IMG/VR virus record: IMGVR_UViG_3300027974_000025
Length of the DNA stretch: 39,959 nt
Direction: 5' to 3' (one strand)
Source of the DNA: a virus
Taxonomy: Duplodnaviria > Heunggongvirae > Uroviricota > Caudoviricetes
Of this stretch, positions 16,548-39,959 are shown piece by piece; the first letter of the stretch is position 1, and each line of letters starts with the position of its first letter. The translations under genes and the position numbers were made by a program. The notes under the pieces were generated by a model. That model was not told the DNA's origin. It did not search any database and saw only the letters and a program-made list of their open reading frames with translations.

Positions 16548-19500
16548 ATGGATCCTATTTGCTCTGCTGAACCATGTCCAGTCATACTGAATTCCACCTG
16601 CGTATTTTACGAGGGTGCTAATTTGTTATACACTGGTATCAATACTAATGACAGCTTACAAACTGCTCTACAAAAAATAGATGCTAAGTTTCAGGAAGCT
16701 GCCATAGGATACATATTTAATAATGGTGTTTTTCAATCTGGACCAGGATTACCTGTAGGGCTTGGAGGAACACTAAATCAGAATACAGTCATTACTAGCA
16801 ATGGGTATACATTCAGAATGACAGGAACTATTGAATCAGCAGGATTCATAACCACTGGGGGAACATCATCAGACTTTGTTAAAGGAGATGGTAGCTTAGA
16901 TCCAAATTCCTATCAACCAGCTGGTAACTATATTACAGGATTGGTGGGTGATGGTACAGCAACAGGTCCTGGATCTGTAGCTTTAACATTAGCTACAGTG
17001 AATGCTAACCCTGGTACATATGGTAGTGGAACATCTGTTCCTATCATTACAACTGATGCTAAGGGTAGAATAGTTAATATTAGTTCTGCATCTATTCCTT
17101 TTGCTTCTAGCACTATTATTATTGTAGGTGACATGAGTGGTTCAGGAACCATAGGCACTCCTGTTACACTAACATTGAACTCAGTTAATAGCAATGTTTA
17201 CGCTAGTAATACATTCTTAAAGGTGGCTGTAAATGGTAAAGGATTAGTTACATCAGCAGTTACAGTGGGACCTGGAGACATCATCACAGCATTAGGATAC
17301 ACTCCTGTTCCAGACACTCGCACCATTACAATCAATGGTGTTACAAGAGATCTATCTGCTAACAGAACATTCAATGTAGGTACAGTGACAAGTGTAGGCA
17401 TAACTATGCCTTCAGGTTTTACAGTGTCAAATAGTCCCATTACATCTAATGGAGTTATTAATATAACAGCCAATGGTACTATTAGTCAATATATAAGAGG
17501 TGATGGTTCTATAGGTACATTCACTGCTAGTACAAGTGGTAGTTCAGGTACTGCTGGAACTAGTGGTAGTTCAGGAACTAGTGGATCTAGTGGGACAGTT
17601 GGTACAAGTGGGACTAGTGGAACTAGTGGAAGTTCAGGAACTAGTGGTACAGCTGGTACCAGTGGAACAAATGGTTCAAGCGGTACAAATGGTTCAAGTG
17701 GTACAGCAGGAACTAGTGGCACTACAGGTACAAGTGGGTCATCTGGTACAAGTGGATCGTCTGGTACAGTGGGTACTAGTGGTACATCAGGGTCTAGTGG
17801 AACTAGTGGTACAACTGGTACATCAGGAACTACTGGTACATCTGGGAGAAATGGTACTAGTGGTACAACAGGCACATCAGGTACAAGTGGTTCTACAGGA
17901 ACTACAGGTACAAGTGGAACTAGTGGCACTACAGGAACAAGTGGTACAGCAGGAAGCTCTGGTGTAAGTGGTATCTCTGGTGGTCAGATTTATTGGCTAA
18001 ATCTATCTAATAATACAAACACTGCTTTTGGCACACCTACATATAAACAATGGAGTCCTAATCCGTCTGGTGCTGCACAGCAAACAACTAGTATTACATT
18101 AGGTGCTTCAGCTAGTGGAACAGTTGCAACCTTTGCAACAGATAGTGGTGTTCCAAACATCACTTCATTAAATGGAGGTAACTGGGCTTGGACATTACAC
18201 TTCTTATCTAGTGCTAGTTCAACATGGGATTTAGATGTACGTTTATATAAATATACAATAGGTGGTGTTTCTACATTATTAGGAACTACAAATAACGTTG
18301 TAACAACAATTGATGGAACAATTGTTGCACAAATATATCTCGACACATTCATACCTGCACAATCATTAAATGCAACAGATAGGTTGTATTGTGAAGTGTA
18401 TGTTATAAATAATGATAGTGTAAGTAGAACATTAACTTTCTATACAGAAGGTTCAACGTATTACTCTTACGCACAAACCACATTCAATGCACCTTCAGGT
18501 ACCTCTGGTACAGCAGGGGCTAATGGTACATCAGGAACTAATGGCTCATCAGGAACATCTGGCTCCACTGGTACCACTGGTACATCTGGCACGTCTGGAA
18601 CTAGTGGATCTTCAGGTACAAGTGCATCTAGTGGATCTAGTGGAACAAGTGCTTCTTCAGGAACTAGTGGATCTACAGGTACTTCAGGTACCTCTGGTAC
18701 ATCAGGTTCATCTGGTATATCTGGTTCTAGTGGAACTAGTGGGTCTAGTGGAACTAATGGTTCTAATGGATCTTCTGGTTCATCAGGAACTAATGGTTCT
18801 TCTGGAACCAATGGATCTAGTGGTACTACTGGTACATCTGGAATAAGTGGTACTAGTGGTTTATCTGGTTCATCTGGTACAACTGGAACAAGTGGTTCAT
18901 CAGGAACCACAGGTACTAGTGGCTTTAGTGGAACTAGTGGGTCTAGTGGAACTAATGGTTCTTCAGGAGTTAATGGAACATCAGGAACTAATGGTTCTAG
19001 TGGTATAACAGGAACTAATGGATCTAGTGGTACATCAGGAACCGCAGGTACTAGTGGTACTAGTGGAAGCTCTGGCTCTTCTGGAACAGATGGTTCTAGT
19101 GGAACAAGTGCTAGTTCTGGTACAAGTGGATCTAGTGGTACAAATGGTTCTTCAGGGTCTTCAGGAACAAGTGGAAGTTCTGGTTCTACAGGAACGAGTG
19201 GTTCTAGTGGAATAAATGGAAATGGAACAGCTGGTACTAGTGGTGTTGGTTCTCCTGGTACAGCTGGAACTTCAGGTGTTGGTAGTCCTGGAACAAGTGG
19301 AACAAGTGGATTAAATGCTACAGCTGGTACTAGTGGAGTTAGTGGAAATGGAACAGCTGGAACAAGTGGAGCTACATTTGGTACTGCAGGTACTAGTGGT
19401 AATGCCTCAATATTAACTAGTCCTTCTACAACAACAATTCAAATTCCTCTTGCTACATATATAATTGGGCAAGCTGCTCTTGGTGGTATAATAGCATATA

Positions 19501-21029
19501 TTCTTCAATCTGGAGATCCAGGATATATTTCAAGTGCTCAGAAAGGTTTAGTGGCAACAACTGCAAATACTTCAACAGGTGCACAATGGGGATGTCAAGG
19601 AACTACTATATCAGGAGCAGATGGAACTGCAATAGGAACAGGTAATCAAAACACCATTGATATAATGGCTGGTTGTGCTACAGCAGGAATTGCTGCTAGA
19701 TTATGTGGTGATTTAGTAGAAGGAGGATATGACGACTGGTATTTACCAAGTAAAGATGAGTTAAATAAATTGTACTTAAATAAAATAGCTATTGGTGGTT
19801 TTGCGAATAACTCCTATTATAGTTCTACAGAGGCCAGCGACATCTTCGCGTGGGCCCAGGATTTCATCGCTGGCGGTCCATACGTCAACGCTAAGTCCAA
19901 CAATAGCTATGTTCGCGCCATTAGATCATTTGATGCATCTCTAGTAACATTAACTGTAAATACAGGACTTGCTTTTACAACTGGGCAGTTTGTTCAAGTT
20001 ATAAATAGTTCTACTAATTATATATTTGGACAAATTGTATCATATAATTCTAGCACAGGTGAATTAGTTATTACAGCAAGTACTACAAGTGGTAATGGTA
20101 CATTTAGTTCTTGGATAGTTGTTGCTGGTGGTAATAATGGCTCTAGTGGAACTGCAGGTACATCTGGTTTAACTGGTTCTTCTGGTACAGATGGATCTAG
20201 TGGACAAACATATGGTACTTCTGGAACCTCAGGAACAAATGGAACAAGTGGGACATCAGGAACATCTGGTACAAATGGATCAAATGGATCTAGTGGAACT
20301 ACTGGTACTTCTGGTACAAATGGTTCAGCAGGAACTAGTGGAGCAACCTTTGGTACAGCTGGTACTTCTGGAGCTACCTTTGGAACTGCAGGAACGTCAG
20401 GAGCTACCTTTGGAACTAGTGGTACTAGTGGATTTGCTATATCAGAAATTGCTATTTCTGGTACACAAAATGGATCAAATAAAACATTTACATTAGCATC
20501 TGCTCTTATAATAGGAACTGTACATCAGTTTTATTTAAATGGTCAATTGTTAGTTTATACTAATGACTACACTATATCAGGAACAACATTAACCTTTGCT
20601 ACAGACAGACCTGCTCCTACACCATCTGATGCTTTGAAAATATATGGAGCTGTTGGTGGATCTACTATGGCAGGTATTCCTTTAGGTGGATCTACAGGAC
20701 AGGCTTTATTAAAAGCTTCAGCTACAAACTATGATGTTGTATGGGGAGATGTATTAAACATACAACAAATCAATGGCCAATCTGGTAATATAACAGCAGG
20801 TAATGCACCAGAAGTAATTTATGTATATGAGTTTACAGGAGCTGGTACACTTACATTACCTACAGCTGTAGGAAATTCTTGTATTTATAAAATAAAAAAT
20901 AGGGCTAGTGTTAATATTTTTGTTACCTTTACATCTGGACAGAATGCTGATGGGTCTACAAGTATATCATTAACACCATATACAGCGTTAGACTTTATAT
21001 CAAATAACTCAAATTATAATATTTATTAA
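16548..21029 (+). CDS. Multidomain collagen-like tail/capsid fibre with an internal DUF1566/C-type-lectin-fold domain
   Basis: 1493 aa. Cys-containing N-terminal module; TDAKGR/VNGKGLVT shaft-type motifs; three Gly-X-Y tracts; YIIGQAALGGIIAY...DDWYLPSKDEL...SSTE...AW...VRAIRSF (nt 19458-19931); C-terminal FYLNGQLL...DYTISG and GGSTGQALLKAS fibre modules. Confidence 0.82.
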   Translation: MDPICSAEPCPVILNSTCVFYEGANLLYTGINTNDSLQTALQKIDAKFQEAAIGYIFNNGVFQSGPGLPVGLGGTLNQNTVITSNGYTFRMTGTIESAGFITTGGTSSDFVKGDGSLDPNSYQPAGNYITGLVGDGTATGPGSVALTLATVNANPGTYGSGTSVPIITTDAKGRIVNISSASIPFASSTIIIVGDMSGSGTIGTPVTLTLNSVNSNVYASNTFLKVAVNGKGLVTSAVTVGPGDIITALGYTPVPDTRTITINGVTRDLSANRTFNVGTVTSVGITMPSGFTVSNSPITSNGVINITANGTISQYIRGDGSIGTFTASTSGSSGTAGTSGSSGTSGSSGTVGTSGTSGTSGSSGTSGTAGTSGTNGSSGTNGSSGTAGTSGTTGTSGSSGTSGSSGTVGTSGTSGSSGTSGTTGTSGTTGTSGRNGTSGTTGTSGTSGSTGTTGTSGTSGTTGTSGTAGSSGVSGISGGQIYWLNLSNNTNTAFGTPTYKQWSPNPSGAAQQTTSITLGASASGTVATFATDSGVPNITSLNGGNWAWTLHFLSSASSTWDLDVRLYKYTIGGVSTLLGTTNNVVTTIDGTIVAQIYLDTFIPAQSLNATDRLYCEVYVINNDSVSRTLTFYTEGSTYYSYAQTTFNAPSGTSGTAGANGTSGTNGSSGTSGSTGTTGTSGTSGTSGSSGTSASSGSSGTSASSGTSGSTGTSGTSGTSGSSGISGSSGTSGSSGTNGSNGSSGSSGTNGSSGTNGSSGTTGTSGISGTSGLSGSSGTTGTSGSSGTTGTSGFSGTSGSSGTNGSSGVNGTSGTNGSSGITGTNGSSGTSGTAGTSGTSGSSGSSGTDGSSGTSASSGTSGSSGTNGSSGSSGTSGSSGSTGTSGSSGINGNGTAGTSGVGSPGTAGTSGVGSPGTSGTSGLNATAGTSGVSGNGTAGTSGATFGTAGTSGNASILTSPSTTTIQIPLATYIIGQAALGGIIAYILQSGDPGYISSAQKGLVATTANTSTGAQWGCQGTTISGADGTAIGTGNQNTIDIMAGCATAGIAARLCGDLVEGGYDDWYLPSKDELNKLYLNKIAIGGFANNSYYSSTEASDIFAWAQDFIAGGPYVNAKSNNSYVRAIRSFDASLVTLTVNTGLAFTTGQFVQVINSSTNYIFGQIVSYNSSTGELVITASTTSGNGTFSSWIVVAGGNNGSSGTAGTSGLTGSSGTDGSSGQTYGTSGTSGTNGTSGTSGTSGTNGSNGSSGTTGTSGTNGSAGTSGATFGTAGTSGATFGTAGTSGATFGTSGTSGFAISEIAISGTQNGSNKTFTLASALIIGTVHQFYLNGQLLVYTNDYTISGTTLTFATDRPAPTPSDALKIYGAVGGSTMAGIPLGGSTGQALLKASATNYDVVWGDVLNIQQINGQSGNITAGNAPEVIYVYEFTGAGTLTLPTAVGNSCIYKIKNRASVNIFVTFTSGQNADGSTSISLTPYTALDFISNNSNYNIY
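17538..17978 (+). repeat. Uninterrupted (Gly-X-Y)49 tract, X/Y almost all Thr/Ser, no proline
   Basis: Translation GSS GTA GTS GSS GTS...GVS GIS; 49 triplets counted by hand. Confidence 0.92.
18498..19400 (+). repeat. Second Gly-Thr/Ser-Ser collagen-like tract (~300 aa) with a few interruptions
   Basis: GTS/GSS/GTN triplets. Interruptions are Gly-to-Ala (TSASSG) and short inserts (GNG, GVGSPG, GATF). Confidence 0.9.
19803..19931 (+). other. Putative diversity-generating retroelement variable region (VR)
   Basis: 19 of 37 codons in 19809-19919 end in C, with about 10 CpG in ~120 bp of an otherwise CpG-poor, A/T-third-position sequence. The variable codons are explainable as AAY derivatives (gcc agc gac atc ttc) between fixed SSTE / AW / F / G / K / VRAI scaffold codons. 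Confidence 0.75.
20130..20432 (+). repeat. Third Gly-Thr/Ser-Ser collagen-like tract with GQTY/GATF interruptions
   Basis: Translation GNNGSSGTAGTSG...GTAGTSGATF x3...GTSG. Confidence 0.88.
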
Positions 21030-21445: not shown

Positions 21446-24286
21446 ATGGCAATCATTAATACGCTTAGGAAGCAGATAGATTTACCAGTTTTTGAATGGA
21501 CAAGGTTTGCTCCAGCAGTTTCTTCTGCTGTTTCATCATCTGCTGTTTGTGACACTCCTATATTTTCAATCACTCAAGGTAGATACATCTATTATTTAAT
21601 AGGTGCTGGATCTTTTTGGAGATATGATACAGTGGCAGATTCTTATTCTCAGTTGTCATCTCCTCCAATTGGTGTGGGTACATTTAGTTCAATGAGATTT
21701 TCAGAATTACAAGCTCCTGAAAGTAATATTATTTCTGCTACATCAAGCACAGCAAATATTCCTGCTTACTTTACCAAGACGTTTAAAGGATATGATATCT
21801 ATATTACATCTGGTACAGGTGCTGGTCAAAGAAGAACTATTACAAATGTTTCTGATCCTATTATTCAGGATTCAGGTAACCTTACAGCATTTACAAATGC
21901 TTTAGGTGGTATTTCAATTACTGACACTCTTAAAAACTGGACAATTAATCAATGGGTTGGTTATCAAGTGAGAATCATTCAAGGAGCTGGTGCTGGTCAA
22001 GTGAGAAAGATTTTATATAATTCAGCTACAGCATTAACATTAGCTGATTCTGTAACTTCTGGTTCAGAAGTTTTTTGTAATCCAATGATTTTTTCTCCAG
22101 CAATTGCTGCTGGTTCCATCTATCAAATTGAATCTTCTAATGTCACTGTAGATACAAACTGGTTAGTAACACCAGATGCTACATCAAAATTTAGAGTGCA
22201 AGGAGGAAGTGTGTTTTTAGTTTCTTCAAATGGTGCTACACCATTCTATTCATTACAACAATATGATGTATTAACAGATATATGGTATATTAGAACTGCT
22301 AACTCAGCTAATATTGCTCTTGTTGGTACAGACTCTACATTAGAAAGAACAGGAGAAGGACCTACTATATGGGCAAGAACAACTTCTACAGTGGTAGGTA
22401 CATCTATGACTTCTGTTGTTACAGGTACTACTACAACATTGACAGATAGTGGTCAAGCTTGGACAGTTAACCAATGGGCAGGATATTATGTTAGAATATT
22501 TAGTGGATCAGGAGAAGGACAACAATCTTTAATTGCGTCTAATACAGCTACAACATTAACCTTTGCTTCTATGTCTGTAGCTCCTGGAGCTACTAGTCAA
22601 TATTTTATTGAGGGGTTTGATGCAGGTACTGCTTCTGGTTCTGGTTCAACAACAACATTAGTTGATTCTACAAAGAGCTGGGCAGTGAATAGATGGAAAA
22701 ACTATGCTGTTAAAATAACTGCTGGTACAGGTAAGGGACAAGTTGCTTCTATTCTTTCTAATACATCTACAACATTAACATTCTATAAAGCTATATCAGC
22801 AGTTACAGATGCTACATCTGTATACACTATTATAGGTGATGCTGATAAACTTTATTTGATGTTAGGTAATAATGCTGGTGTATTTATACAAAATTTAAAT
22901 GATGACTTAGGTACATATAGTAAATTATATGATTCTGGATTAACCTCAATTGGTTCAGTTCAATATGCAAGTAATAAATCAATAGCTCTTACAACATTAG
23001 CAAACGTTACAACAACAGCCACTGTCACTACAGCTATTTCACACAATTTTAAAGTGGGTCAATCTGTTGTAGTGAGAGGTGCTACAGATGCTAACTTCAA
23101 TGGTACGTTTACTATTGCTACAGTTCCTTCTTTAACCACCTTTACTTACACAATGGGTGGTACACCAGCTGCAACAACATTTGTAAACTCTTTAACAACA
23201 CAAACACTTGCTGATTCTACTAAAAACTGGTCAACAAATCAGTGGGCTGGTTATGTAGTTTGGATGAATACAACAGCTGTCACTGCTAGTACAGGTGTTA
23301 CTACAGGACAATGTTTACAGATTTTATCTAACACTGCTACAACATTAACATTTACAGTGGTTGGTACAGCTCCTGTAAATGGTGTTACAAGATATATTAT
23401 AGGAAGAAGACAACAAGTTATTGGAAATATGTTTTCTGGTATTGCTACAGGTACACATTCTACAACAACGTTACAAGATACAAACGTTTCTTCTTTTAGT
23501 GGTACAGCTTCTATTACAGGAAATACATTAACTGTCACTGTTGTAACAGCTGGATATTTAGGCATTGGTTCTGTAATAACAGGTGGTGCTACATTAGCAG
23601 GTACAACAATTACAGCAATTGGTATTAATACATTTGGTGGAGTTGGTACATATACAGTGAATTATTCTCAGTCAGTAAGTTCAGGAACATTAACTTCTAC
23701 AGGATGGGCTGTGAATATATTTGCTGGTAGAAGATTAAAATTCTTGGGTGGTACAGGTGCAGCACAAGAGCTTTTAATTTCATCTAATACAGCAAACGTT
23801 CTTACATTTGGAGCTGGTACAGCACCAGTTACTTCTAGTACAGTTTATTCTATTCTTCAACAACCAATTAGAGGTGTAGGTATATCTATGAACTGGACAT
23901 TTGGTACAACAGATATTAGTGTTCGTGGTAAACGTCTAATAGTTCCTCGTGGTGGTGCAACAGTTAACTGGGATGCGGTTGATCTTACAACAGATACATT
24001 TGATCAAATTGCTATCACTCCTCAAATAGAAACTCTATCAACAGGTAGTATGTATGCTTATGATGGTGTAGATAGAATTTATTATACAAAAGATGTTACA
24101 CAAAGATTATACTATTTAGATGCTACTACATTTACAGCATATGGTGCAGGACAATATCCATATTTAGCAGGTGCCGCTATTATTGGAAATAGAATGGAAG
24201 TGTTTCAAACAGTGGATGGATTGAAATACTTATGGTTAAACAGACACTCTAATACTGAGTGTTACAGAGAATTATTGTTCTATTAA
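21446..24286 (+). CDS. Thr/Ser/Gly-rich virion adhesin-like protein: Kelch/beta-propeller-like ends with internal ~45-aa repeats
   Basis: 946 aa. Blade-like motifs (FWRYDTVADSY, YDVLTDIWY, DLTTDTF, YAYDGVDRIYY) flank repeats with consensus TLxDSxKxWxxNQWxGYxVxIxxGxGxGQxxxIxSNTxTTLTF. Confidence 0.65.
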   Translation: MAIINTLRKQIDLPVFEWTRFAPAVSSAVSSSAVCDTPIFSITQGRYIYYLIGAGSFWRYDTVADSYSQLSSPPIGVGTFSSMRFSELQAPESNIISATSSTANIPAYFTKTFKGYDIYITSGTGAGQRRTITNVSDPIIQDSGNLTAFTNALGGISITDTLKNWTINQWVGYQVRIIQGAGAGQVRKILYNSATALTLADSVTSGSEVFCNPMIFSPAIAAGSIYQIESSNVTVDTNWLVTPDATSKFRVQGGSVFLVSSNGATPFYSLQQYDVLTDIWYIRTANSANIALVGTDSTLERTGEGPTIWARTTSTVVGTSMTSVVTGTTTTLTDSGQAWTVNQWAGYYVRIFSGSGEGQQSLIASNTATTLTFASMSVAPGATSQYFIEGFDAGTASGSGSTTTLVDSTKSWAVNRWKNYAVKITAGTGKGQVASILSNTSTTLTFYKAISAVTDATSVYTIIGDADKLYLMLGNNAGVFIQNLNDDLGTYSKLYDSGLTSIGSVQYASNKSIALTTLANVTTTATVTTAISHNFKVGQSVVVRGATDANFNGTFTIATVPSLTTFTYTMGGTPAATTFVNSLTTQTLADSTKNWSTNQWAGYVVWMNTTAVTASTGVTTGQCLQILSNTATTLTFTVVGTAPVNGVTRYIIGRRQQVIGNMFSGIATGTHSTTTLQDTNVSSFSGTASITGNTLTVTVVTAGYLGIGSVITGGATLAGTTITAIGINTFGGVGTYTVNYSQSVSSGTLTSTGWAVNIFAGRRLKFLGGTGAAQELLISSNTANVLTFGAGTAPVTSSTVYSILQQPIRGVGISMNWTFGTTDISVRGKRLIVPRGGATVNWDAVDLTTDTFDQIAITPQIETLSTGSMYAYDGVDRIYYTKDVTQRLYYLDATTFTAYGAGQYPYLAGAAIIGNRMEVFQTVDGLKYLWLNRHSNTECYRELLFY

Positions 24287-30702: not shown

Positions 30703-30706
30703 ATTG

Positions 30707-31702: not shown

Positions 31703-32364
31703 TTGGTTCTGAATTTAATTTCATCAATCTTAAGCTTCTTAGCTTTAGCTTCTCCTATCTGTTGTACATTTAATGTTTCCATATGGCAAACAATAGCATC
31801 TCTAACAAGAGCATGTTTAATCCCTGCTTCTTTAAGTCTCTCAGCATAGTCATTATCCTGGTAGTACATGTCAAACAGTTCATCAAATGGTAGGATTTTA
31901 TCTAGAGCAGTTTTCTTAATCACAGTGCACCAGCCTTGTAATGCTTCTGTAACAGCGTAAGATTCAAAATAGCTATCATCACTTCCTATAAAATGATTAG
32001 GGAAGTAACGCATGTATAGTAATGGATCTCTAGGAGAGAATGCTTCTATGTCTGGTCTTTGTTGGTGCACATTTATCATCTCAGTGAACCAACCCTTTTC
32101 ATAACTTACATCATCATTAGATATAACTACCCAATCACTAGTACAATAACCAATGGCTATATTCAAGAACTTGTTATAATTGAATGAACTCTCAGGACGT
32201 ATATAATTATGATAGTCTCTATATCTAATTGGATTATTACTTCCTGAATCTACAAGTTGTACACGAAACCTATACGTTGACTCACTATTATGTAATGTGT
32301 CTATAGTACGCTGTGTCATAGTTACATCTGTACTATCTGTAAGTATTATTACATCTACTATCAT
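31690..32364 (-). CDS. GT2-family (GT-A) glycosyltransferase
   Basis: 224 aa. VQLVDSGS, FNYNKFLNIA, WVVISNDDV (DxD-like), FDMYYQDNDYAERLKEAG. Confidence 0.82.
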   Translation of the reverse strand: MIVDVIILTDSTDVTMTQRTIDTLHNSESTYRFRVQLVDSGSNNPIRYRDYHNYIRPESSFNYNKFLNIAIGYCTSDWVVISNDDVSYEKGWFTEMINVHQQRPDIEAFSPRDPLLYMRYFPNHFIGSDDSYFESYAVTEALQGWCTVIKKTALDKILPFDELFDMYYQDNDYAERLKEAGIKHALVRDAIVCHMETLNVQQIGEAKAKKLKIDEIKFRTKWNQ

Positions 32365-32367
32365 ATA

Positions 32368-32919
32368 TTATTTTTTAATTCCCCAAAAATATAAATCATG
32401 TGTTTCTTCATTAGTATAAAACTTATAAATTTTATACCATTTAGTTAGATCTAATTCATTGCATATAATCTCTTCTGTTAGATTCATATAATAGTCAGCC
32501 CACTCATCAGTAACTACAGCTGTGAAAGGAGAGTTATCTGGTGTAGTTCTTCTGGTACCATGTTCATGTCTTCCTGTTGTAGCACAACTAAATAAGAATA
32601 ATCCCTCTGATCTTAACAGATTCTCAGAAACATTAGTAATAGTATCTTTCCAGTACATATCGTGCTCAAAGCATTCTGTAGATATTACAATATCATAATT
32701 AGAATTATCAATAGGCTTGTATAAATGTCCCTTGCTAACTACATTTACATTTTTACCTTTACCAATATCTATTCCTATGTATGAATAGTCTTCAAATAGG
32801 AAGTGATTACTTCCATTGATATCTAAAGATCCTATATCACATACATTCACTCCCTTGAAATACTCAGGGAATAGTTCTTTCACTTTAAGACAGAACTTCT
32901 GTTGATTTTCGTGTGCCAT
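32368..32919 (-). CDS. Class I SAM-dependent methyltransferase
   Basis: 183 aa. VCDIGSLDING (motif I), YIGIDIGKGKNV, YDIVISTECFEHD, GLFLFSCA. Confidence 0.8.
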   Translation of the reverse strand: MAHENQQKFCLKVKELFPEYFKGVNVCDIGSLDINGSNHFLFEDYSYIGIDIGKGKNVNVVSKGHLYKPIDNSNYDIVISTECFEHDMYWKDTITNVSENLLRSEGLFLFSCATTGRHEHGTRRTTPDNSPFTAVVTDEWADYYMNLTEEIICNELDLTKWYKIYKFYTNEETHDLYFWGIKK

Positions 32920-35576
32920 TATTTTCTAAATGTTTTATGTGAGTTATCAATTAATGAGAATCCATCTGCTTGGGTGGTAATTCTGTTATGTAGAATGCCC
33001 ATCTTGTGTCCTGCAAAGATGAGATTAAAATACATATCTGCAGCATCCCAATGATGCATTCTTACAGTGTCTTTTAATTCCTTTGCAATCTTAGCTGGGA
33101 ACATAATACATTGTAAACCAATAATGTGATTGGTAATATACATTACATCATTGACCTCTTCTATTATAGGAGATTGAGGCCAGCCATGTTCTAATGTATC
33201 TTTATCTCCAAAGGACATAATGTGTATGTTGTTTGGTCCCAATAAGTGTGCACATTCCTCAACTTTTCGTATGAAATTGTGTATATCTGTCTCAATAATA
33301 CAATCTCCTTCACATACCATTAAGAAGTCACAATCATGGAATTCTGTTAGGATGGCATTCTTGAATGCTTCATAGCATCCATAATGTGCTGGGGTAAGTG
33401 CAGTGCCCAACCTTTGCACTGTGGGTTCATCGAAGAGTTCCATTGAAACACAATCTGGTCTGATGCAGTTATATGATGGTGGTAATGATTTATAGGGCTC
33501 ATTAAGTTGTAAGATATATTCCCATCCATGGTCTTTGACTTGCTCAAGGGATGCTCTACTTGCTTGTTCTCTTTCATCGTTTAATGTTGTTTGTATGTGA
33601 ACTAATTTAATTTTAGGTTTGATATTCTTCCATTGAAACTTACCTGTATTTTCATACAAGTGTAAGTTGTCCTTAGTTAGTTTAAACTCTTCCACCTTAT
33701 AGTTAGTATCTCCATCATAGAAATCCATTCTTATATCTATAGGTTCTCCCTTGAATTCAAACTGATAAGCAAGTTCATGCTTCTGGGCTGGTATGATTCT
33801 TTTCCACATGTAGTCTGCAATAGATACATAGATGTTTCTATAGTCTCTGTTGTATGTAAAGAAATAGAACATGTAATTGTTTGGTTTTCCAACAACAGGA
33901 AGGATGGAATAATACTCACTATTAGAGGCAACACCTAATCCACTGTTAATCAATAGAGTAGACTTGTCATTAGTAACTAGTTGTACGTCATTAGGATTGA
34001 AACTAAATATCACTTTAGATAGATATTCTTCTAGATAGTTCTCACATCTTCTGCGTGTGCATACAGCATTCCATTCTTCTGGTGTACGTACATCATCAAA
34101 CTCTTTTAAGAAGAAGTCTGTATTAAACAAGATACCATTAGTCTGAATTCCTAATCCCTGTGGTGTAGGAAGTGTAGCTGCACAAAGTTTTTTATCTGTC
34201 TTAAATGCAGCATTCACTGCATGTACATCATCTTTGTCTAACACAACATCATATGTAGTGTAGAAGAATCTATTGAATCCTAGTTCTTTGGCAGCTTTGG
34301 CACCATTGAACATGTTAGTCAAGACAGTGAGAGACTGGTTACTATTCTTCAATCCATTGATATTTATCTCAGCAAAGTAGTCTGGTTGATCATTATAGAA
34401 CCTGGTGTAGTAGCTGTGATGTGTAAGAGGGTTGTGTGCATCATAGATATAATAATCCACCATTCTTTGTATATCAGCATCTACAGGATAGTGACTCACT
34501 AGTATAATCTTTCTACCTAATGGTTTAAGACTATTGATAGTATCCTTTGTCCACTGCACTCTGTCCTTAATATTAGGATAGGTGCCCAAGATGATACACT
34601 CTTCTTCTATCTTATCAAGGTTTAATTTTTCTACTAGATTGGTAGCATCACTACTAAGATCTCCAGTTAAATAAACCATGTTAGGTTCATCATCATACTT
34701 ATTACAATACACATCTAGGTTGTACATTAGTTTGATTAGGTCATCGTATTGTAATGCTTCCTTAATAGCAATGGGATTTAACTCCTTGTTACCACGATCA
34801 CCCTTGGAAGGGAAGAAGAACACATCAGATGCTTCTAAGAAATTAGTTACATCATCACGCTCTCCCCAGACAACACAGTTCTCTGGTTTGTTCTGCATCA
34901 ATGGCTGCCAATAGAATTCAAAGTTACCTGCTTGGTTACCTAAGAAATGGAACTTAATCTTATAGTTCTTCAAACGCTCAGCTAATTCAAATGCATAAGC
35001 TTGGTTCTTTCTAGGTGTAAATAGTCCTACAGTGATGAGATGCTTGTAACTAGGATCTAGTCCTAACTTCTTCTGCATATCTATTTTGCTACGTTGCTTT
35101 TTGTCTACAGGATATTCAATAATCCTCATAGGAACATCTAAGTGTATGTATTTGAATGCATTATATGCACTAACAAACACAAACATATCAGGAAACATTG
35201 TCTTACTTCTAGGGTTAAATGAGCTATCATGTGTAGTTTCTACAATTCTCCAGCTTCTATCTGAGCTATATAGATAGTCAGCACATTCAGTGTTCATAAA
35301 CATCTCAGGAAATTCCTCCATGGATATTGTATCTGGTTGGAACTCATCAACAATCCTTGATAGTTGCTCAAGCTTGTTATCTCCTAGAGAATAGAAGTTT
35401 TGTTCTCCTACAAGTCTTATGATTCTGTTTCTTTGTACAACAAAAGCCCAGGCAATCAAGTCCCACTCAACCACCTTGATATCAAAATCATTCTGTAAAA
35501 GCTCTATCTTATTTACTGTTACCTGTGGTGCCCCTCCTGTTGATAGATGAGGAGTGATGATTAATAGTTTTTTCAT
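32919..35576 (-). CDS. Multi-domain glycosyltransferase: GT4-like + putative GT-like domain + GT25-like
   Basis: 885 aa. aa 1-~320: HLSTGGAPQV, VGLFTPRKNQ, DVFFFPS...ELNPIAIKEAL. aa ~327-650: paralogue of the 331-aa gene. aa ~655-885: HYGCYEAFKNAI...LMVCEGDCII...DAADMY. Confidence 0.72.
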   Translation of the reverse strand: MKKLLIITPHLSTGGAPQVTVNKIELLQNDFDIKVVEWDLIAWAFVVQRNRIIRLVGEQNFYSLGDNKLEQLSRIVDEFQPDTISMEEFPEMFMNTECADYLYSSDRSWRIVETTHDSSFNPRSKTMFPDMFVFVSAYNAFKYIHLDVPMRIIEYPVDKKQRSKIDMQKKLGLDPSYKHLITVGLFTPRKNQAYAFELAERLKNYKIKFHFLGNQAGNFEFYWQPLMQNKPENCVVWGERDDVTNFLEASDVFFFPSKGDRGNKELNPIAIKEALQYDDLIKLMYNLDVYCNKYDDEPNMVYLTGDLSSDATNLVEKLNLDKIEEECIILGTYPNIKDRVQWTKDTINSLKPLGRKIILVSHYPVDADIQRMVDYYIYDAHNPLTHHSYYTRFYNDQPDYFAEININGLKNSNQSLTVLTNMFNGAKAAKELGFNRFFYTTYDVVLDKDDVHAVNAAFKTDKKLCAATLPTPQGLGIQTNGILFNTDFFLKEFDDVRTPEEWNAVCTRRRCENYLEEYLSKVIFSFNPNDVQLVTNDKSTLLINSGLGVASNSEYYSILPVVGKPNNYMFYFFTYNRDYRNIYVSIADYMWKRIIPAQKHELAYQFEFKGEPIDIRMDFYDGDTNYKVEEFKLTKDNLHLYENTGKFQWKNIKPKIKLVHIQTTLNDEREQASRASLEQVKDHGWEYILQLNEPYKSLPPSYNCIRPDCVSMELFDEPTVQRLGTALTPAHYGCYEAFKNAILTEFHDCDFLMVCEGDCIIETDIHNFIRKVEECAHLLGPNNIHIMSFGDKDTLEHGWPQSPIIEEVNDVMYITNHIIGLQCIMFPAKIAKELKDTVRMHHWDAADMYFNLIFAGHKMGILHNRITTQADGFSLIDNSHKTFRK

Positions 35577-36499
35577 ATGTTATTGTTAATTGCATGTATC
35601 ACTTGTGCTACAGATGGATGGCATTCAAAAGTTTCTTTCTTTTCTAAGCATCCAATTAGTGGCTGTACATAATCTATTGTAGGCCAATACTCAAGAGCAT
35701 ATTTCATATTAGAGCTGCAGTGTAATCCACATCCTCCTCTTACGTATATATGTTTTCCTTCTTGTCTATGTGGTGTGCGAAACTCTGGATTGATAGGAGA
35801 TCCTAATTCAATAATATCAGTGCTAGTTGTACCTGCTAGATGTAGAATACCTGAGTCCATAGTGATGACCAAGTTAGCATTGTTAATCAAATGCCAAGTT
35901 TGAGAGATGGATGTCTTATTCATTAGGTTGATAACGTTATCATTCATCTCATGTACAGGTTTATCTACATTAAAGAACCCTGTCTCAGAAGAGTCCTTAC
36001 CAACTGCTACAACTTTATATCCCAATTTATTTAATTCATCAACTAGTTTTAACCAATTATCCTGTGACCACGTTCTATTAGGCCAGCTGTTAACAGGATG
36101 TATCACAGCATATTTACCCTCTACAAGAACATTAGGTTCTTCTATAGGTTGATAGAAACATTCCATTTCATCTTGCCTAAGCATAAAGCCTAGGTGTATA
36201 GCATGGAACTGCCTGATATCCATCATGTTATGCTTCATCTCTACACCACGCTCGTCTTTCTTACCCACTAGATAGAATGAATTATGTACAATGTAATTAC
36301 TTTGTATGTACGTCATGTCTACAGAAGCAGCTTTATAGCTAGCTTCTACATAAGGATTCATCTTGAAGAGCTCAGGCATTTTAGAGAGAACAACAATCTT
36401 TCTTTGGTAGGAGTCATGAAGTTTTTTGATAGTGGGGGTGGCACAGATTAGGTCACCCAATCCATTACATTCTTCCAGATTTAAACAAACTGGTTTCAT
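35573..36499 (-). CDS. GT9-like (heptosyltransferase-fold) glycosyltransferase with a C-terminal Cys cluster
   Basis: 308 aa. GLGDLICATPTIKKL, WPNRTW, VITMDSGILHLAGT; C-x3-C-x22-C-x8-C ending in FEC. Confidence 0.8.
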   Translation of the reverse strand: MKPVCLNLEECNGLGDLICATPTIKKLHDSYQRKIVVLSKMPELFKMNPYVEASYKAASVDMTYIQSNYIVHNSFYLVGKKDERGVEMKHNMMDIRQFHAIHLGFMLRQDEMECFYQPIEEPNVLVEGKYAVIHPVNSWPNRTWSQDNWLKLVDELNKLGYKVVAVGKDSSETGFFNVDKPVHEMNDNVINLMNKTSISQTWHLINNANLVITMDSGILHLAGTTSTDIIELGSPINPEFRTPHRQEGKHIYVRGGCGLHCSSNMKYALEYWPTIDYVQPLIGCLEKKETFECHPSVAQVIHAINNNI

Positions 36500-36501
36500 T
36501 T

Positions 36502-36547
36502 GTTGGTTATTTCAAACAAAGTTAGTATTTTTGTTGAAAATAACAAA
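36502..36547. promoter_or_regulatory. Back-to-back divergent Bacteroidota-type promoters
   Basis: Minus strand: TTTG (36547-36544)-N19-TAACTTTG (36524-36517), facing the GT operon. Plus strand: GTTG (36502-36505)-N20-TATTTTTG (36526-36533), facing the 36558 gene. Confidence 0.7.
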
Positions 36548-36557
36548 ACATTTTACC

Positions 36558-36926
36558 ATGAAAATTGAAGTTTCTGTGGGGGAAGTTGTAGACAAATGGA
36601 CTATACTTTCCATTAAAGGTCTGAACATTACAGACAAAGACAAACTAGTTAATGTTTTCAAAGAAAGAAATTATCTAAACACTGTTATAGATTTTGAAAT
36701 CTTACATGATGTTTTAACAGATCAACTAATTGAGGTGAATCAAGCTCTTTGGAAGGTGGAAGATCTTCTAAGAGACTTTGAAAGAGCTGGTAGCTTTGGT
36801 GAAGAGTTTGTTGACTTGGCTAGATCTGTCTACAAATTAAATGATAAAAGAGCACATATTAAAAAAGAAATTAATATTAAGTATGGCTCTGACTTTGTAG
36901 AGGAAAAGTCCTACCAGCCCTACTAA
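36558..36926 (+). CDS. DUF6165-like protein (122 aa)
   Basis: MKIEVSVGEVVDKWTILSIK...VNQALWKVEDLLRDFE...FVDLARSVYKLNDKRAHIKKEIN...EEKSY. Start re-called at ATG 36558 because 36426-36557 overlaps the opposite-strand gene and the promoters. Confidence 0.75.
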   Translation: MKIEVSVGEVVDKWTILSIKGLNITDKDKLVNVFKERNYLNTVIDFEILHDVLTDQLIEVNQALWKVEDLLRDFERAGSFGEEFVDLARSVYKLNDKRAHIKKEINIKYGSDFVEEKSYQPY

Positions 36927-36933
36927 AAAAAGA

Positions 36934-36965
36934 TTTGGTAGTTTCAACTTTTTCACTTAGTTTTG
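36934..36965 (+). promoter_or_regulatory. Bacteroidota-type promoter for the lysis cassette
   Basis: TTTG (36934-36937)-N20-TAGTTTTG (36958-36965), matching the consensus. Confidence 0.72.
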
Positions 36966-37046
36966 CAATGAACTAGAATTTAACCTAAATAGGTCTTTCT
37001 GACCATATTATGCACTCATGTCCTGGGTGTATTTTTATTTATACCA

Positions 37047-37352
37047 ATGAGAGAAAATACTAACATTCAAACAATCAAAGCTTGGGTATTCCCAACTTTA
37101 GTTTCTATCTTAGCCATGATGATATGGAATGATGTCAACGAAATCAAAGCTGATGTCAAAGCCCTAATGGCTCAGTCAGCCATAGACAAAACTCGTATAG
37201 ACAACTTAGAAAGAGCTGTGTTTGGTAATAAGAGTGGGAATACAAACTTTCCTACTGATAGAAGATTACCAGAACCTCCTTATAATCTAATAGCTGTTAT
37301 CCCTACTCGTGAAGAATTAATTGCTATAAAAACTAAAAAGAAAACTATATGA
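37047..37352 (+). CDS. Membrane protein, single TM plus coiled coil (holin/antiholin-like)
   Basis: 101 aa. AWVFPTLVSILAMMIW followed by heptad-like NEIKADVKALMAQ...IDNLE. First gene of an overlapping four-gene cassette ending in the endolysin. Confidence 0.55.
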   Translation: MRENTNIQTIKAWVFPTLVSILAMMIWNDVNEIKADVKALMAQSAIDKTRIDNLERAVFGNKSGNTNFPTDRRLPEPPYNLIAVIPTREELIAIKTKKKTI

Positions 37353-37570
37353 AATTTAAATGGACAGGCTATTGGAAACCTACCCCTAAGAAGATTAGGA
37401 AAATTGCTGATGCTATTGTAGCAGCAACTACATTTAGTGGTAGTGTAGTTGTACTTAATGGTCACCCTCTAGTAGGAACCATTATTTTTGTTTTAGGCTT
37501 TGTAGCTAAGGTGGTATCTAACTTCTTTGAAGAAGATAAACCAGTAAAAAAGACTAAGAATGCAAAGTAA
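37349..37570 (+). CDS. Putative holin
   Basis: 73 aa. Basic N-terminus, two hydrophobic segments (IADAIVAATTFSGSVVVL; LVGTIIFVLGFVAKVV), charged tail. Confidence 0.6.
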   Translation: MKFKWTGYWKPTPKKIRKIADAIVAATTFSGSVVVLNGHPLVGTIIFVLGFVAKVVSNFFEEDKPVKKTKNAK

Positions 37571-38165
37571 ACATTTATATATAGTGATTATTGCTTTGAT
37601 AGCTGTTGTATTCTTACAAAGAACTGGCTGTACTTACATTCCTAAAGAAGCTCCAAAGGTAACAATTGACACCCTTATAAGTGTTATAGAGATACATGAC
37701 ACAATCAAAGGAAAACCTGTCTTTATCAAAGCTAAAAGAGATACCATCTGGAAAGATAGTTTAATATTTAAGCCTGACACCAACTATGAAGGTCTTCTTA
37801 AGCAATACATTGCCTTGGGAGACTCTCATTTTACTAAGAATATATACAAAACAAACTATGAATTAGATAGCTTTGGAACTGCCACTATTGCAGATACAGT
37901 GGTTGCTAACAAGTTATCAGGACGTTTAATAAGTTACAATCTAAATATACCTACTAAGACAATCACTATAACTAAAACTCCTCCTGCTGTTAGACAGTTC
38001 TACATAGGAGGTGGACTTTATGGAAATCCTCTTACAATTATAAAGTCTGCAAACTTAGGGGTGTTGTATAAGGATAGGCAAGACAGAATCTTTGTTGCTT
38101 CTGTTGGTTTTGATGGTCAACCAATCTATGGATTTTATTCATATTGGAAAATTAGACTTAAATGA
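37560..38165 (+). CDS. Putative spanin-like envelope protein
   Basis: 201 aa. N-terminal hydrophobic segment ending RTGC, Thr/Asp-rich linker, C-terminal amphipathic beta-strands (QFYIGGG...NLGVLY...YGFYSYWKIRL). Directly upstream of the endolysin. Confidence 0.45.
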   Translation: MQSKHLYIVIIALIAVVFLQRTGCTYIPKEAPKVTIDTLISVIEIHDTIKGKPVFIKAKRDTIWKDSLIFKPDTNYEGLLKQYIALGDSHFTKNIYKTNYELDSFGTATIADTVVANKLSGRLISYNLNIPTKTITITKTPPAVRQFYIGGGLYGNPLTIIKSANLGVLYKDRQDRIFVASVGFDGQPIYGFYSYWKIRLK

Positions 38166-38635
38166 TAAAGATTAATGATGATTGTATCAACTTAATTAAA
38201 AGCTTTGAGGGATTCTCTTCAAATGCTTATCATGGTGAACTAGATCCTGCACACGTAGATACTATTGGTTATGGAACTATTAAATATCCTCCCAATTATA
38301 TGGGGGGTAAAGCTGTTAAGGTGGGTGATCCAATGATTACTACAATACAAGGATTTGAATTTCTGAAACATGAAGTGAATCTAAAAACTGATGGTGTAGA
38401 TATGCTTATTAGAGATGACCTAACTGTTAATCAGTTTGGGGCATTAGTAAGCTTTGCTTATAACTTAGGACTTGGAGCTTTAAAAGGTTCTACATTACGT
38501 AAGAAGGTGAATATCAATCCTTTAGATCCTACAATTAGAGATGAGTTTATGAAATGGGACATGGCTAATGGAGCTCATATTAAAGGACTTGCTAGAAGAA
38601 GAAAAGCAGAAGCAGATTTATATTTTAAAAAATAA
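38162..38635 (+). CDS. GH24 phage lysozyme (endolysin)
   Basis: 157 aa. LIKSFEG...D-x5-T (DPAHVDTIGYG), NQFGALVSFAYNLG, STLRKKVN, GLARRRKAEADLY. Confidence 0.92.
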   Translation: MIKINDDCINLIKSFEGFSSNAYHGELDPAHVDTIGYGTIKYPPNYMGGKAVKVGDPMITTIQGFEFLKHEVNLKTDGVDMLIRDDLTVNQFGALVSFAYNLGLGALKGSTLRKKVNINPLDPTIRDEFMKWDMANGAHIKGLARRRKAEADLYFKK

Positions 38636-38641
38636 ACTAAC

Positions 38642-38770
38642 ATGGCAAAAGCAAAAGGAGGAACAGCCTCTACAAAACTAACATTTGGAAAACGCAAGGG
38701 TGGAAAGGCTAGTAAAACTAAAGGTCCTAAAGACAAGGCAACTAAACCTTACAACAGACAGGGCAGATAA
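38642..38770 (+). CDS. 42-aa very basic peptide (not in ORF track)
   Basis: MAKAKGGTASTKLTFGKRKGGKASKTKGPKDKATKPYNRQGR: 11 K, 3 R, 1 D. Starts 6 nt after the endolysin stop, with an AT-rich leader. Confidence 0.65.
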   Translation: MAKAKGGTASTKLTFGKRKGGKASKTKGPKDKATKPYNRQGR

Positions 38771-38825
38771 TAACTAAAAAAGTTAAAACACTTATAACTA
38801 AAATTGTTATTGTAAATTATTGACT

Positions 38826-38859
38826 CTCATTGTTAATAGTAAAAAGTAACATACCTTTG
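38826..38859 (+). promoter_or_regulatory. Bacteroidota-type promoter
   Basis: CTCATTG (38826-38832)-N19-TACCTTTG (38852-38859), 19 nt before the ATG at 38879. Confidence 0.62.
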
Positions 38860-38878
38860 GGAATTAATTTTCAATACT

Positions 38879-39448
38879 ATGGCTATACCAAGCAGACAGA
38901 TAGGATGGGGAACAGAAGAAAACCTTTTATGGCAGATATCTAAACAGATGGAAGCATTGACTGGTGTAACAAGTAATATACCAGCTCCACTATCTCTTTA
39001 TTCAGGCACTTTTTTTGATGTTACCACTCAAAACAATGGTGGTGCAACTACAGCTAACCAAGTATTAATAGCGTCAACACAAGCTGCTAATGGGTTTACA
39101 TTGACTAGTAATAGAGTGAATGTTATTAATTCAGGTGTATATTATATAGACCTTGCTCTCCAACTTACATTTACTGGTGGAGCATCAAGCTATAATGTAA
39201 CTGTTTGGTATACAATAAATGATGCAATTGTACCTAATTCTGCATTTACATTCACTACAACTGGAGCACAAAATGATCAAACTTTAGCACATTTATCAGA
39301 TACAATTGCATTAACTGCTGGACAATATATTAAATTCTATTGGTGGTCACCAGCTACAGGTATGAAGCTTTTAGCAACTGCTGCTGGTAGTAACCCAACT
39401 AGACCTTTATCACCATCTGTTAATTTTAATATATTTAACATAGGATAA
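38879..39448 (+). CDS. Virion decoration/fibre-tip protein: ~30-aa N-terminal module plus C1q/TNF/BclA-CTD-like jelly-roll domain
   Basis: 189 aa. NRVNVINSGVYYIDLALQL...VWYTIN...IALTAGQYIKFYW fits the strand pattern of C1q-like domains. Confidence 0.6.
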   Translation: MAIPSRQIGWGTEENLLWQISKQMEALTGVTSNIPAPLSLYSGTFFDVTTQNNGGATTANQVLIASTQAANGFTLTSNRVNVINSGVYYIDLALQLTFTGGASSYNVTVWYTINDAIVPNSAFTFTTTGAQNDQTLAHLSDTIALTAGQYIKFYWWSPATGMKLLATAAGSNPTRPLSPSVNFNIFNIG

Positions 39449-39450
39449 TC

Positions 39451-39594
39451 ATGGCAATACCTTCTCAACAAATAGGCTGGAGCCAAAAGGCTAAACTACT
39501 TTGGCAGATATCTAAGCAATTAGAAGCTTTAACAGGAGTGATGGGTAGGAATATTCCTGCTACCACCACTACAACAACTACAGCTACTCCTTAA
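39451..39594 (+). CDS. 47-aa peptide: copy of the preceding gene's N-terminal module plus a Thr tail (not in ORF track)
   Basis: MAIPSQQIGWSQKAKLLWQISKQLEALTGVMGRNIPATTTTTTTATP, compared with MAIPSRQIGWGTEENLLWQISKQMEALTGVTSNIPA at 38879. Confidence 0.8.
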   Translation: MAIPSQQIGWSQKAKLLWQISKQLEALTGVMGRNIPATTTTTTTATP

Positions 39595-39621
39595 TAAAGA
39601 GAAAACCAACAAACTACATAT

Positions 39622-39959
39622 ATGAAGGATCTTAAATTTATCTGTGCCCAGCCAGATGATGTATACTACACATGGCAGGTACATCTATGGTTGGAAAGCT
39701 TGAAGAAGCTTGGACACTCAGACAAAGCAATTGTTTTAGTGTATACACCTAGTTTTAGAGAATACAATGGCAAGTGGGAAAAGATCATGGAACTGTATCC
39801 TGAAGCAAAGTTTGCTTTCTACAAGGATTCAGGAGATGTAAGTCAGTATTTAGGAGTTTATATTCCTATTCTACGTCCTTATTGCTTAATGAGATATTTC
39901 CAGGACAATCCTGATATGGTCACCAAAGCAGTGTTTTACTGTGACTGTGACGTAATCTT
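39622..39959 (+). CDS. GT-A glycosyltransferase, N-terminal part (truncated by the window edge); resembles peptide O-glycosyltransferases (plant SERGT/HPAT type)
   Basis: MKDLKFICAQPDDVYYTWQVHLWLESLKKLG...YIPILRPYCLMRYF...VFYCDCDVI; DxD at nt 39943-39951; open to the window end; not in the ORF track. Confidence 0.6.
   Translation, partial: MKDLKFICAQPDDVYYTWQVHLWLESLKKLGHSDKAIVLVYTPSFREYNGKWEKIMELYPEAKFAFYKDSGDVSQYLGVYIPILRPYCLMRYFQDNPDMVTKAVFYCDCDVI

Follow-up and report, generated by a model that had tools for sequence, protein, structure and literature searches.

The DNA analysed here, IMG/VR virus record IMGVR_UViG_3300027974_000025 (Caudoviricetes; 39,959 nt in full, hereafter the window), is from a freshwater phage and carries genes for collagen-like tail fibres next to an operon of glycosyltransferase (GT) genes (Table 1). 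Tail-fibre PHROGs and an endolysin place it in a phage structural and lysis region (PHROG search). Two fibre proteins, fib1493 and fib318, together contain 224 Gly-X-Y triplets, counted in runs of at least three, with Thr or Ser at X and Ser, Thr, Asn or Ala at Y. These amount to 672 residues, lying where an original prediction, made from the sequence alone, had put roughly 700. On the minus strand, convergent with the fibre module and overlapping it by 17 bp at the 3′ ends, are seven tightly packed or overlapping genes, the GT operon that the same prediction had described beside the fibres.

The larger fibre contributes 170 of these triplets (510 amino acids (aa)), with an Lcl_C (DUF1566-type) domain set between the collagen tracts. 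In fib318, an N-terminal domain matching phage tail-fibre/virion PHROGs precedes a C-terminal part of 54 G-(T/S)-S triplets (162 aa). The strict form G-[ST]-[ST] accounts for 152 of the 224 triplets, and a DNA pattern of five such triplets was found 28 times in the window, compared with 0.00 expected from shuffles. Both fibres have the uninterrupted Gly-X-Y repeats recognized by the collagen family model (PF01391). The 672 residues include just 2 Pro and 5 charged residues, however, leaving hardly any Pro/hydroxyproline or charge pairs to stabilize a putative triple helix.

The operon gene that had been singled out as Aah/TibC-like encodes BAHT357, a 357-aa protein that scored above the TIGR04414 equivalog cutoff (226.2 bits versus 200; E = 5.9e-67; profile positions 41–373 of 374) and aligned to TibC (4rap) over 305 aa (7.5e-42). 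With residue roles taken from the TibC structure paper (PMC4358343), the catalytic base of the LGD motif, D110 in TibC, corresponds to D97, which is Asp in 52/52 phage homologues. TibC T226, K230 and W305, which contact the β-phosphate and the sugar, correspond to T209, K213 and W274; the last two positions are kept in all 52 homologues, and the first is Thr in 47 and Ser in 5. The iron-finger cysteines C309, C312, C328 and C340 (C339, C342, C358 and C370 in TibC) are also invariant (52/52), in domains that form 20 clusters at 55% identity. The BAHT357 alignments begin at query aa 39–47, the N-terminal β-barrel of TibC spanning aa 1–97, and in many phage homologues a fused GT4 domain replaces the barrel region. 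The profile score and the conserved residues therefore make membership of the bacterial autotransporter heptosyltransferase (BAHT) family secure, and BAHT357 is a predicted Aah/TibC-family protein O-glycosyltransferase. As expected beforehand for the GTs, none of the GT proteins has a transmembrane-like segment (maximum Kyte–Doolittle 19-residue mean ≤1.06) or a signal segment.

Co-occurrence of the enzyme with the repeats had been named in advance as a test that could refute a link between them. With BAHT357 as the query, 46 IMG/VR loci (labelled L001 onward) were fetched. In the lineage of the window, a Ser/Thr-type (S/T) collagen-like open reading frame (ORF) lay within 10 kb at 17 of 25 distinct BAHT loci, and seven of the eight others have flanks truncated at ≤6.4 kb; homologues of fib1493 adjoin BAHT in relatives. 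For the converse, IMG/VR was scanned for runs of six G-[ST]-[ST] codon triplets and the whole contigs were then searched with TIGR04414, with contigs picked by a Gly-Pro-X DNA pattern as the comparison sample. Among the matches listed, BAHT was present in 21/69 distinct repeat-picked contigs (19 above the TIGR04414 cutoff) and in 0/66 Gly-Pro-X-picked contigs (Fisher p = 1.3e-7; 3.9 versus 3.1 Mb of total sequence). Among repeat-picked contigs of at least 50 kb the count was 16/26, and among those at least 90% complete it was 5/8. The proposed pairing of enzyme and acceptor thus passed the test. The two genes also lie close together: a repeat ORF was found ≤4.1 kb from BAHT in 10 of the 15 positive contigs of 50–300 kb (≤40 bp in four), and such proximity was seen in contigs of 10–300 kb. 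The BAHT-adjacent fibres reach 888 triplets.

Proximity could arise without function if hypervariable islands for host recognition collect both fibre genes and accessory GTs, which recombination then moves together. Fibre regions have been described as variable islands (PMC10202952), non-repeat domains are common to many of the fibres next to BAHT, and phage and bacterial BAHTs are intermixed in our tree, pointing to frequent transfer. Mere linkage, however, leaves unexplained the specificity for S/T-type over Pro-type repeats, the GT4 fusions and the two-gene pairs of BAHT with a (GSS)n lipoprotein in bacterial housekeeping regions described below, and we regard it as improbable.

The pairing extends beyond the lineage of the window. 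At the DNA level, the GT cluster had a single match among GenBank phages (315 bp at 67%), so it has no close cultured relatives, and a protein search found BAHT in just 4/50,697 phage records. Microcystis phage Mel-JY01 (PP395634.1), an isolated myovirus with a T4-like capsid, has a plus-strand open frame of 1016 codons with 185 G-T/S-S triplets, followed by a structural protein and a GT4–BAHT fusion (317 bits); the frame lies 1.7 kb upstream of the fusion and probably wraps around the record start. GenBank places two minus-strand 'hypothetical proteins' (1–651 and 739–2298) over this ORF. In the window, too, the antisense frames of the Gly-Thr/Ser repeats stay open (VP(L/V)VP... ORFs). In the megaphage LR756501, a 39-triplet ORF lies ~5 kb from BAHT. 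A 'cytidylyltransferase-like' gene of Mel-JY01 gave a marginal CTP_transf_like match and no NCBIfam match, and was not used.

Bacterial genome contigs showed the same arrangement, with an S/T-type G-X-Y ORF within 10 kb at 14/20 BAHT loci. In Methylobacter luteus and a gammaproteobacterial metagenome-assembled genome (MAG), the partners are small proteins with a signal peptide/lipobox and (GTS)n/(GSS)n tracts, and the pairs sit among housekeeping genes (queA, mfd, glycolate oxidase and miaB). Judged by sequence, BAHT and the repeat lipoprotein are apparently an undescribed glycoprotein pair. Canonical plasmid BAHTs lay directly upstream of an AIDA-type autotransporter in 3/3 cases, so that substrate adjacency is the rule in the family. 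In a quick maximum-likelihood tree (three canonical rows only, midpoint root, quick search), the canonical enzymes grouped in a clade of their own (100% support), separate from a mixed group of repeat-linked phage and bacterial enzymes.

These neighbours bear on whether BAHT might act on a different protein (an adhesin or autotransporter of the host, a Gly-rich tail protein or another virion protein) and not on the collagen-like repeats. Canonical BAHTs do modify β-helical autotransporters (PMC4358343), and three Gly_rich_2 (PF21722) tail proteins stand directly beside the BAHT gene in the window. However, no autotransporter was found in the window or in related loci, where the conserved neighbour is the S/T collagen-like ORF. 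The window shares the Gly_rich_2 trio only with L001 and L002, the two relatives nearest to it, and the trio was rejected as a conserved substrate, whereas the S/T collagen partner is kept down to 31–50% BAHT identity and into bacteria. A different acceptor is, in our estimate, of similarly low probability to linkage without function.

Together, these observations lead us to favour, with some confidence, a reading in which the minus-strand operon encodes a phage protein O-glycosylation pathway whose acceptors would be the phage's own proline-free Gly-(Thr/Ser)-Ser fibres, fib1493 being the proposed main acceptor and fib318 a further proposed one. What we infer about acceptor, step order, sugar and benefit is as follows. 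In the cytoplasm of the infected cell, soluble BAHT357, the proposed initiating enzyme, would move the first sugar from a host-made nucleotide sugar donor to Ser/Thr of the unassembled tracts. The operon's GT4 (GT4_335), the proposed second-step enzyme, would extend this primer sugar, and the 885-aa enzyme (p885), GT9 and, optionally, GT2, p331 and a methyltransferase would build it into a short oligosaccharide. The glycosylated chains would then trimerize and be incorporated into the virion as fibres with a sugar coat. Such a glycan could stand in for the missing proline and charge by stabilizing or solubilizing the shaft, and could also shield the shaft or aid adhesion.

Several points count against fibre glycosylation, which is itself a prediction. 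What BAHT is known to modify is a strand-loop-strand motif in a β-helix, and not a collagen-like tract. R286 of TibC, which contacts adenine N1 and so specifies an ADP-activated donor, is Val in BAHT357, and across the 52 phage homologues this position is V in 23, T in 11, R in 6 and A in 4, with others in the remainder. The HMMER alignment to TibC is gapped by ~10 residues at the β-hairpin thumb (F265/V266), so BAHT357 appears to have lost the thumb on which the TibC dodecamer depends. With R286 lost and the thumb gapped, an ADP-heptose donor and a dodecameric ring are not secure; the loss of R286 weakens the case for this donor and not for membership of the fold family. Among the repeat-bearing contigs, no BAHT was found in 48/69, including 3/8 near-complete ones, and the BAHT phages L044, L046 and LR756504 have no S/T repeat within 10 kb or anywhere. 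With each partner also found alone, the link is strong but not obligatory. By their non-repeat domains, 35 of 44 BAHT-adjacent fibres fall into one single-linkage family, so the association is in part due to inheritance and not to independent events. The repeat-picked and Gly-Pro-X contig samples are not random draws, and in the window the operon lies on the strand opposite to the fibre genes. The clustering of non-repeat fibre parts had been aimed at showing that only the repeats are shared; with one large family and nine singletons, it was weakly informative.

The operon as a whole has eight supported GT domains (one each in BAHT357, GT4_335, GT2, GT9 and p331, and three in p885). About nine had been predicted; the ninth candidate, the gene starting at 39622, is a lead only, its protein belonging to phrog_4417, a family of unknown function, with no Pfam match. 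Across the 46 IMG/VR loci the conserved core comprises BAHT, GT4, the 885-aa protein, GT9 and DUF6165. The GT4 domain is fused N-terminally to BAHT in many other phages (ORFs of 700–1527 aa), and fusions of the p885 N-terminal domain to BAHT were also found, which ties the extension enzymes to BAHT. GT4_335 is not of the GtfA initiating type by TIGR02918 (18.1 bits versus a cutoff of 574.6). The GT2 was found in some relatives only. The methyltransferase had been predicted to cap the glycan: its gene is present in the window (Methyltransf_23 1.2e-5, 25.5 bits, slightly below the gathering score of 27), but only a minority of relatives have one (L003, L004, L008, L020, L021 and also L312), which makes it an optional accessory and not a general cap.

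The first operon gene encodes GT9_308, whose Pfam GT9 domain scored 64.3 bits versus 22. It is 22% identical to BAHT357 (E = 3e-4), keeps the LGD motif, lacks the N-terminal BAHT barrel and has a C-terminal C-x3-C...C...C-H cluster (C257, C261, C284 and C293, invariant in 11 homologues) ending in 'FECH', as does the BAHT iron finger. By sequence, GT9_308 is a candidate for a second metal-finger GT9 enzyme, one without the barrel.

GT9_308 also raises the alternative that the operon remodels the host surface (the lipopolysaccharide (LPS) or lipooligosaccharide core, or another envelope glycan) for superinfection block or receptor masking, the fibres being mere neighbours. GT9_308 is closest to LPS heptosyltransferases I–III, GT4 and GT2 are typical LPS/exopolysaccharide enzymes, the operon runs counter to the structural genes, and papers on aquatic phages by default read phage GTs as modifying the host surface (PMC7029224, PMC10202952). 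Yet GT9_308 falls far below all NCBIfam LPS heptosyltransferase (WaaC/WaaF/WaaQ) cutoffs (26–45.5 bits versus 134–569), and the lead enzyme comes from a protein-specific family, above its equivalog cutoff. Nor do the GT4–BAHT fusions, the specific tracking of S/T repeats by BAHT (21/69 versus 0/66) and the bacterial pairing of BAHT with repeat lipoproteins, not LPS clusters, fit host-surface remodelling, which we consider unlikely.

Table 1 Features of the window, followed by features of related loci (location given as locus:positions). aa, amino acids; SAM, S-adenosylmethionine.
Feature	Location	Strand	Basis or remark
fib1493, 1493-aa tail fibre	16548–21029	+	Three proline-free G-(T/S)-(S/T/N/A) tracts; Pfam Collagen 2.2e-57 in 8 stretches
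Lcl_C domain of fib1493, aa 1005–1126	19560–19925		Pfam 1.6e-8
946-aa structural protein	21446–24286	+	Similar to Pam2 gp66
fib318, 318-aa second fibre/decoration protein	24302–25258	+	phrog_11518 2.9e-28; Pfam Collagen 7.2e-14
81-aa protein, run of 8 Thr	25689–25934	+	Translation, poly-Thr scan
Gly_rich_2 tail proteins, three tandem paralogues	25936–28645	+	Between fibres and BAHT gene
GT operon, seven genes	28629–36499	−	
BAHT357, 357-aa Aah/TibC-family (BAHT)	28629–29702	−	TIGR04414; TibC 4rap
GT4_335, 335-aa GT4 (GT-B)	29695–30702	−	Pfam Glycos_transf_1 9.9e-9
p331, 331 aa	30707–31702	−	Paralogue of middle GT-A-like module of p885
224-aa GT2 (GT-A)	31690–32364	−	Pfam Glycos_transf_2 1.5e-7; phrog_22332 1e-15
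183-aa SAM-dependent methyltransferase	32368–32919	−	phrog_32762 3.9e-51
p885, 885-aa three-domain GT	32919–35576	−	GT-B + two GT-A, AlphaFold models
GT9_308, 308-aa GT9, first operon gene	35573–36499	−	Pfam Glyco_transf_9 1.3e-17
Divergent spacer, 58 bp	36500–36557		Between GT operon and DUF6165 gene
TAnnTTTG motif	36517–36524	−	In divergent spacer
TAnnTTTG motif	36526–36533	+	In divergent spacer
122-aa DUF6165 protein	36558–36926	+	Pfam DUF6165 5.9e-12; divergent from operon
Endolysin	38162–38635		PHROG search
189-aa protein	38879–39448		N-terminal segment shared with 47-aa mini-ORF
47-aa mini-ORF	39451–39594	+	Conserved N-terminal segment; C-terminal T7-A-T-P tail (poly-Thr scan)
39622 gene, 5′ part (112 aa) of phrog_4417 gene	39622–39957	+	phrog_4417 7.4e-14
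GT4–BAHT fusions of 700–780 aa	L028–L037, L311, L312, L314, L315, L316, L317, L319		
DUF6165 near BAHT	L316:4627–5049; L321:12945–13322; L323:3875–4258; L325:13843–14220; also L029–L037, L044		
Collagen-like ORF, Mel-JY01	L047:1–3052	+	1016-codon open frame
BAHT and small repeat proteins, Methylobacter luteus	L332:8923–11125		Adjoining
BAHT and small repeat proteins, gammaproteobacterial MAG	L344:8305–11674		Adjoining
Mini-ORF and phrog_4417 gene	L006:126–1357; L012:390–1589		Mini-ORF directly upstream
Gly-Pro-(Ile/Gln) ORF	L310:16349–19711		170-kb IMG/VR contig

The largest operon protein, p885, has middle and C-terminal domains with no match in Pfam, PHROG or NCBIfam, and was resolved into three domains with two AlphaFold2 models (predicted local distance difference test score, 79). 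In these models, aa 1–321 form a GT4-type GT-B domain (model comparison by VIA, Z 22), whereas aa ~323–555, followed by a β-sandwich (module to ~650), and aa ~652–885 are each modelled as a GT-A domain (VIA Z 13–15). The GT-A fold of the middle domain, with Z 13–14, would extend to p331, a paralogue of the same module that is 20–27% identical to p885 homologues over aa 2–182 or more (blastp) and has no Pfam, PHROG or NCBIfam match of its own. Taken singly, the p885 GT-A domains match generic GT-A enzymes (VIA). The top Foldseek matches of the C-terminal half were COLGALT1 (9evj, 1.2e-10), LH3 and Mimivirus R699 (E 1e-10 to 1e-7), but the template-modelling (TM) score for COLGALT1/LH3 was just 0.26–0.28 and the root-mean-square deviation ~20 Å, so the likeness appears to be one of architecture and is not demonstrated homology. 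Glyco_transf_25 (PF01755) was not found in aa 641–885 or aa 330–640 (Pfam, E up to 1), and just one Atlas neighbour cluster of p885 contains PF01755 members (17%).

GT-B fold matches of p885 include GtfA (4pqg) and, at rank 10, T4 α-glucosyltransferase, which touches on a further explanation, that the GTs hypermodify phage DNA for restriction evasion. Phage GT4/GT2-type enzymes do glycosylate DNA, according to work cited in PMC12619734. On the other side, the BAHT family is one of protein O-glycosyltransferases, no genes for hydroxymethyl-pyrimidines or any other base modification were noticed in the window, and the location of the cluster, with the tail module on one side and the lysis module on the other, is outside the replication module. 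We consider a role in DNA modification very improbable.

Returning to fibre glycosylation, the system had been predicted to be self-contained, with donors from the host or from elsewhere in the genome. Five relatives that are 92–100% complete (105–118 kb) contained no gmhA, rfaE domain II, NDP-sugar epimerase or NTP-transferase. The sugars would therefore have to come from the host, the one predicted source that stands, and 'self-contained' was wrong. Loss of the adenine-contact Arg leaves the identity of the donor sugar uncertain.

Glycosylated collagen-like and repetitive surface proteins are known from other systems. BclA of the Bacillus anthracis exosporium forms surface filaments with a collagen-like Gly-X-Thr region heavily O-glycosylated on Thr; its repeats are Pro-rich (GPT), and its glycosylation enzymes are unrelated to BAHT. 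It thus shares O-glycosylated bacterial-type collagen-like repeats with the arrangement proposed here and differs in its proline content, its non-BAHT enzymes and its place on a spore rather than a virion. On the serine-rich-repeat adhesins of Gram-positive cocci, GtfA/GtfB and extension GTs build short O-glycans on hundreds of Ser/Thr residues. The logic is the same, in that a cytoplasmic multi-GT cluster including GT4 glycosylates a repetitive surface fibre before assembly or export, but the initiator there is GtfA (a GT4) and here would be BAHT, no accessory Sec genes are present here and the repeat type differs. The COLGALT1/LH3 and Mimivirus R699/L230-type enzymes, one of them viral, act on collagen and appear to resemble the C-terminal half of p885 in their tandem GT-A architecture (Foldseek). 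They glycosylate hydroxylysine, however, which the Lys-free repeats of the window cannot offer.

The nearest known counterparts of BAHT357 are TibC/TibA and Aah/AIDA-I of Escherichia coli (Yao et al. 2014, PMC4358343), with which it shares a curated hidden Markov model, the catalytic residues and the four-Cys iron finger. Like them it would be cytoplasmic and soluble, and its gene adjoins one for a repeat-rich surface protein with many potential Ser/Thr acceptors. In place of a β-helical autotransporter, the partner here is a fibre with collagen-like G-(T/S)-S repeats or, in bacteria, a (GSS)n lipoprotein. BAHT357 further differs in having lost the adenine-contact Arg and apparently the thumb, in being phage-encoded, in its separate clade in the quick tree and in sharing its operon with at least seven other GT domains, a setting that implies an oligosaccharide and not a mono-heptose. 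Virion glycosylation has been shown experimentally in mycobacteriophages (Freeman et al. 2023, Cell Host Microbe, as cited in PMC12619734). There, as proposed here, phage GTs decorate the phage's own structural proteins with host sugar donors. The mycobacteriophage systems rely on different enzymes and are not known to include a BAHT, use the C-termini of capsid and tail-tube subunits as acceptors and operate in a Gram-positive host; glycosylation is shown there and predicted here.

Phage virion glycosylation as such is thus already known. A full-text literature search turned up no earlier work that connects BAHT enzymes with collagen-like or Gly-Ser/Thr repeats, or with phage fibres, and the pairing of the two would be a new, testable use of a known enzyme family. 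If so, the BAHT family would gain a second substrate class far broader than virulence autotransporters. The pairing would also explain how proline-free Gly-Thr-Ser 'collagens', common in phage fibres, could be stabilized, and many phage GT 'auxiliary metabolic genes', now assigned to modification of host LPS or DNA, would be reassigned to decoration of the virion. A glycan coat on the fibres would matter for recognizing the host, for adhering to mucus or polysaccharide and for resisting proteases and grazing. The isolate Mel-JY01 makes the hypothesis directly testable.

More tentatively, and at rather less than even probability, BAHT-like iron-finger GTs and proline-free (Gly-Ser/Thr-Ser)n repeats may form an unrecognized, widespread enzyme–substrate module, found on small exported lipoproteins of bacteria and on the tail fibres of many aquatic phage lineages. 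Dense O-glycans, and not hydroxyproline or charge, would give the shaft its folding, its solubility or its resistance to attack. Many of the 'LPS-type' auxiliary GTs of aquatic phages, a large share of the total, would then be virion-glycosylation genes.

Last, other genes of the window may belong to the same system. The DUF6165 gene adjoins BAHT or lies within ~1.5 kb of it in distant phage contigs (BAHT identity to the window, 38–50%), and its product may be a conserved accessory partner of BAHT. The spacer between this gene and the GT operon has TAnnTTTG on both strands, each copy oriented toward its own gene; this motif is the Bacteroidota −7 promoter consensus. It is frequent across the window (65 matches versus ~50 expected), and a σ70 promoter/terminator scan of 28000–39959 found no enrichment (36 found versus 56 expected). 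The poly-Thr runs noted earlier in two small proteins are both present. The 81-aa protein has a homologue in L001/L002 only and could, speculatively, be a minor acceptor. The 47-aa mini-ORF, which shares the N-terminus MAIPSxQIGWS...LLWxISKQL with the 189-aa protein before it, is a possible minimal acceptor peptide. The same mini-ORF directly precedes the phrog_4417 gene in L006 and L012; the two may be a second enzyme–acceptor pair. The phrog_4417 protein is 338 aa long in relatives (full-length L006 homologue, 6.4e-56), and at full length has no Pfam or NCBIfam match. By Atlas features, its neighbours include clusters containing HPAT (10% of members) and DUF7164, and as a lead only it is a candidate further peptide O-glycosyltransferase.

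Among the remaining proteins of the window, one of 3655 aa matched neither Pfam nor PHROG. The 946-aa structural protein matches gp66 of Pseudanabaena phage Pam2 with 51% identity across 92% of the 946-aa protein; gp66 is annotated as a 'flagellar hook-length control protein' and encoded within the tail module of that cyanophage. As a separate observation on phage collagens, a 170-kb IMG/VR contig (L310) has a 1121-aa Gly-Pro-(Ile/Gln) ORF with 278 triplets 4.5 kb from a BAHT fusion. Gly-Ser/Thr repeats occur elsewhere on the same contig, so that Pro-type and S/T-type collagens are found in one phage.

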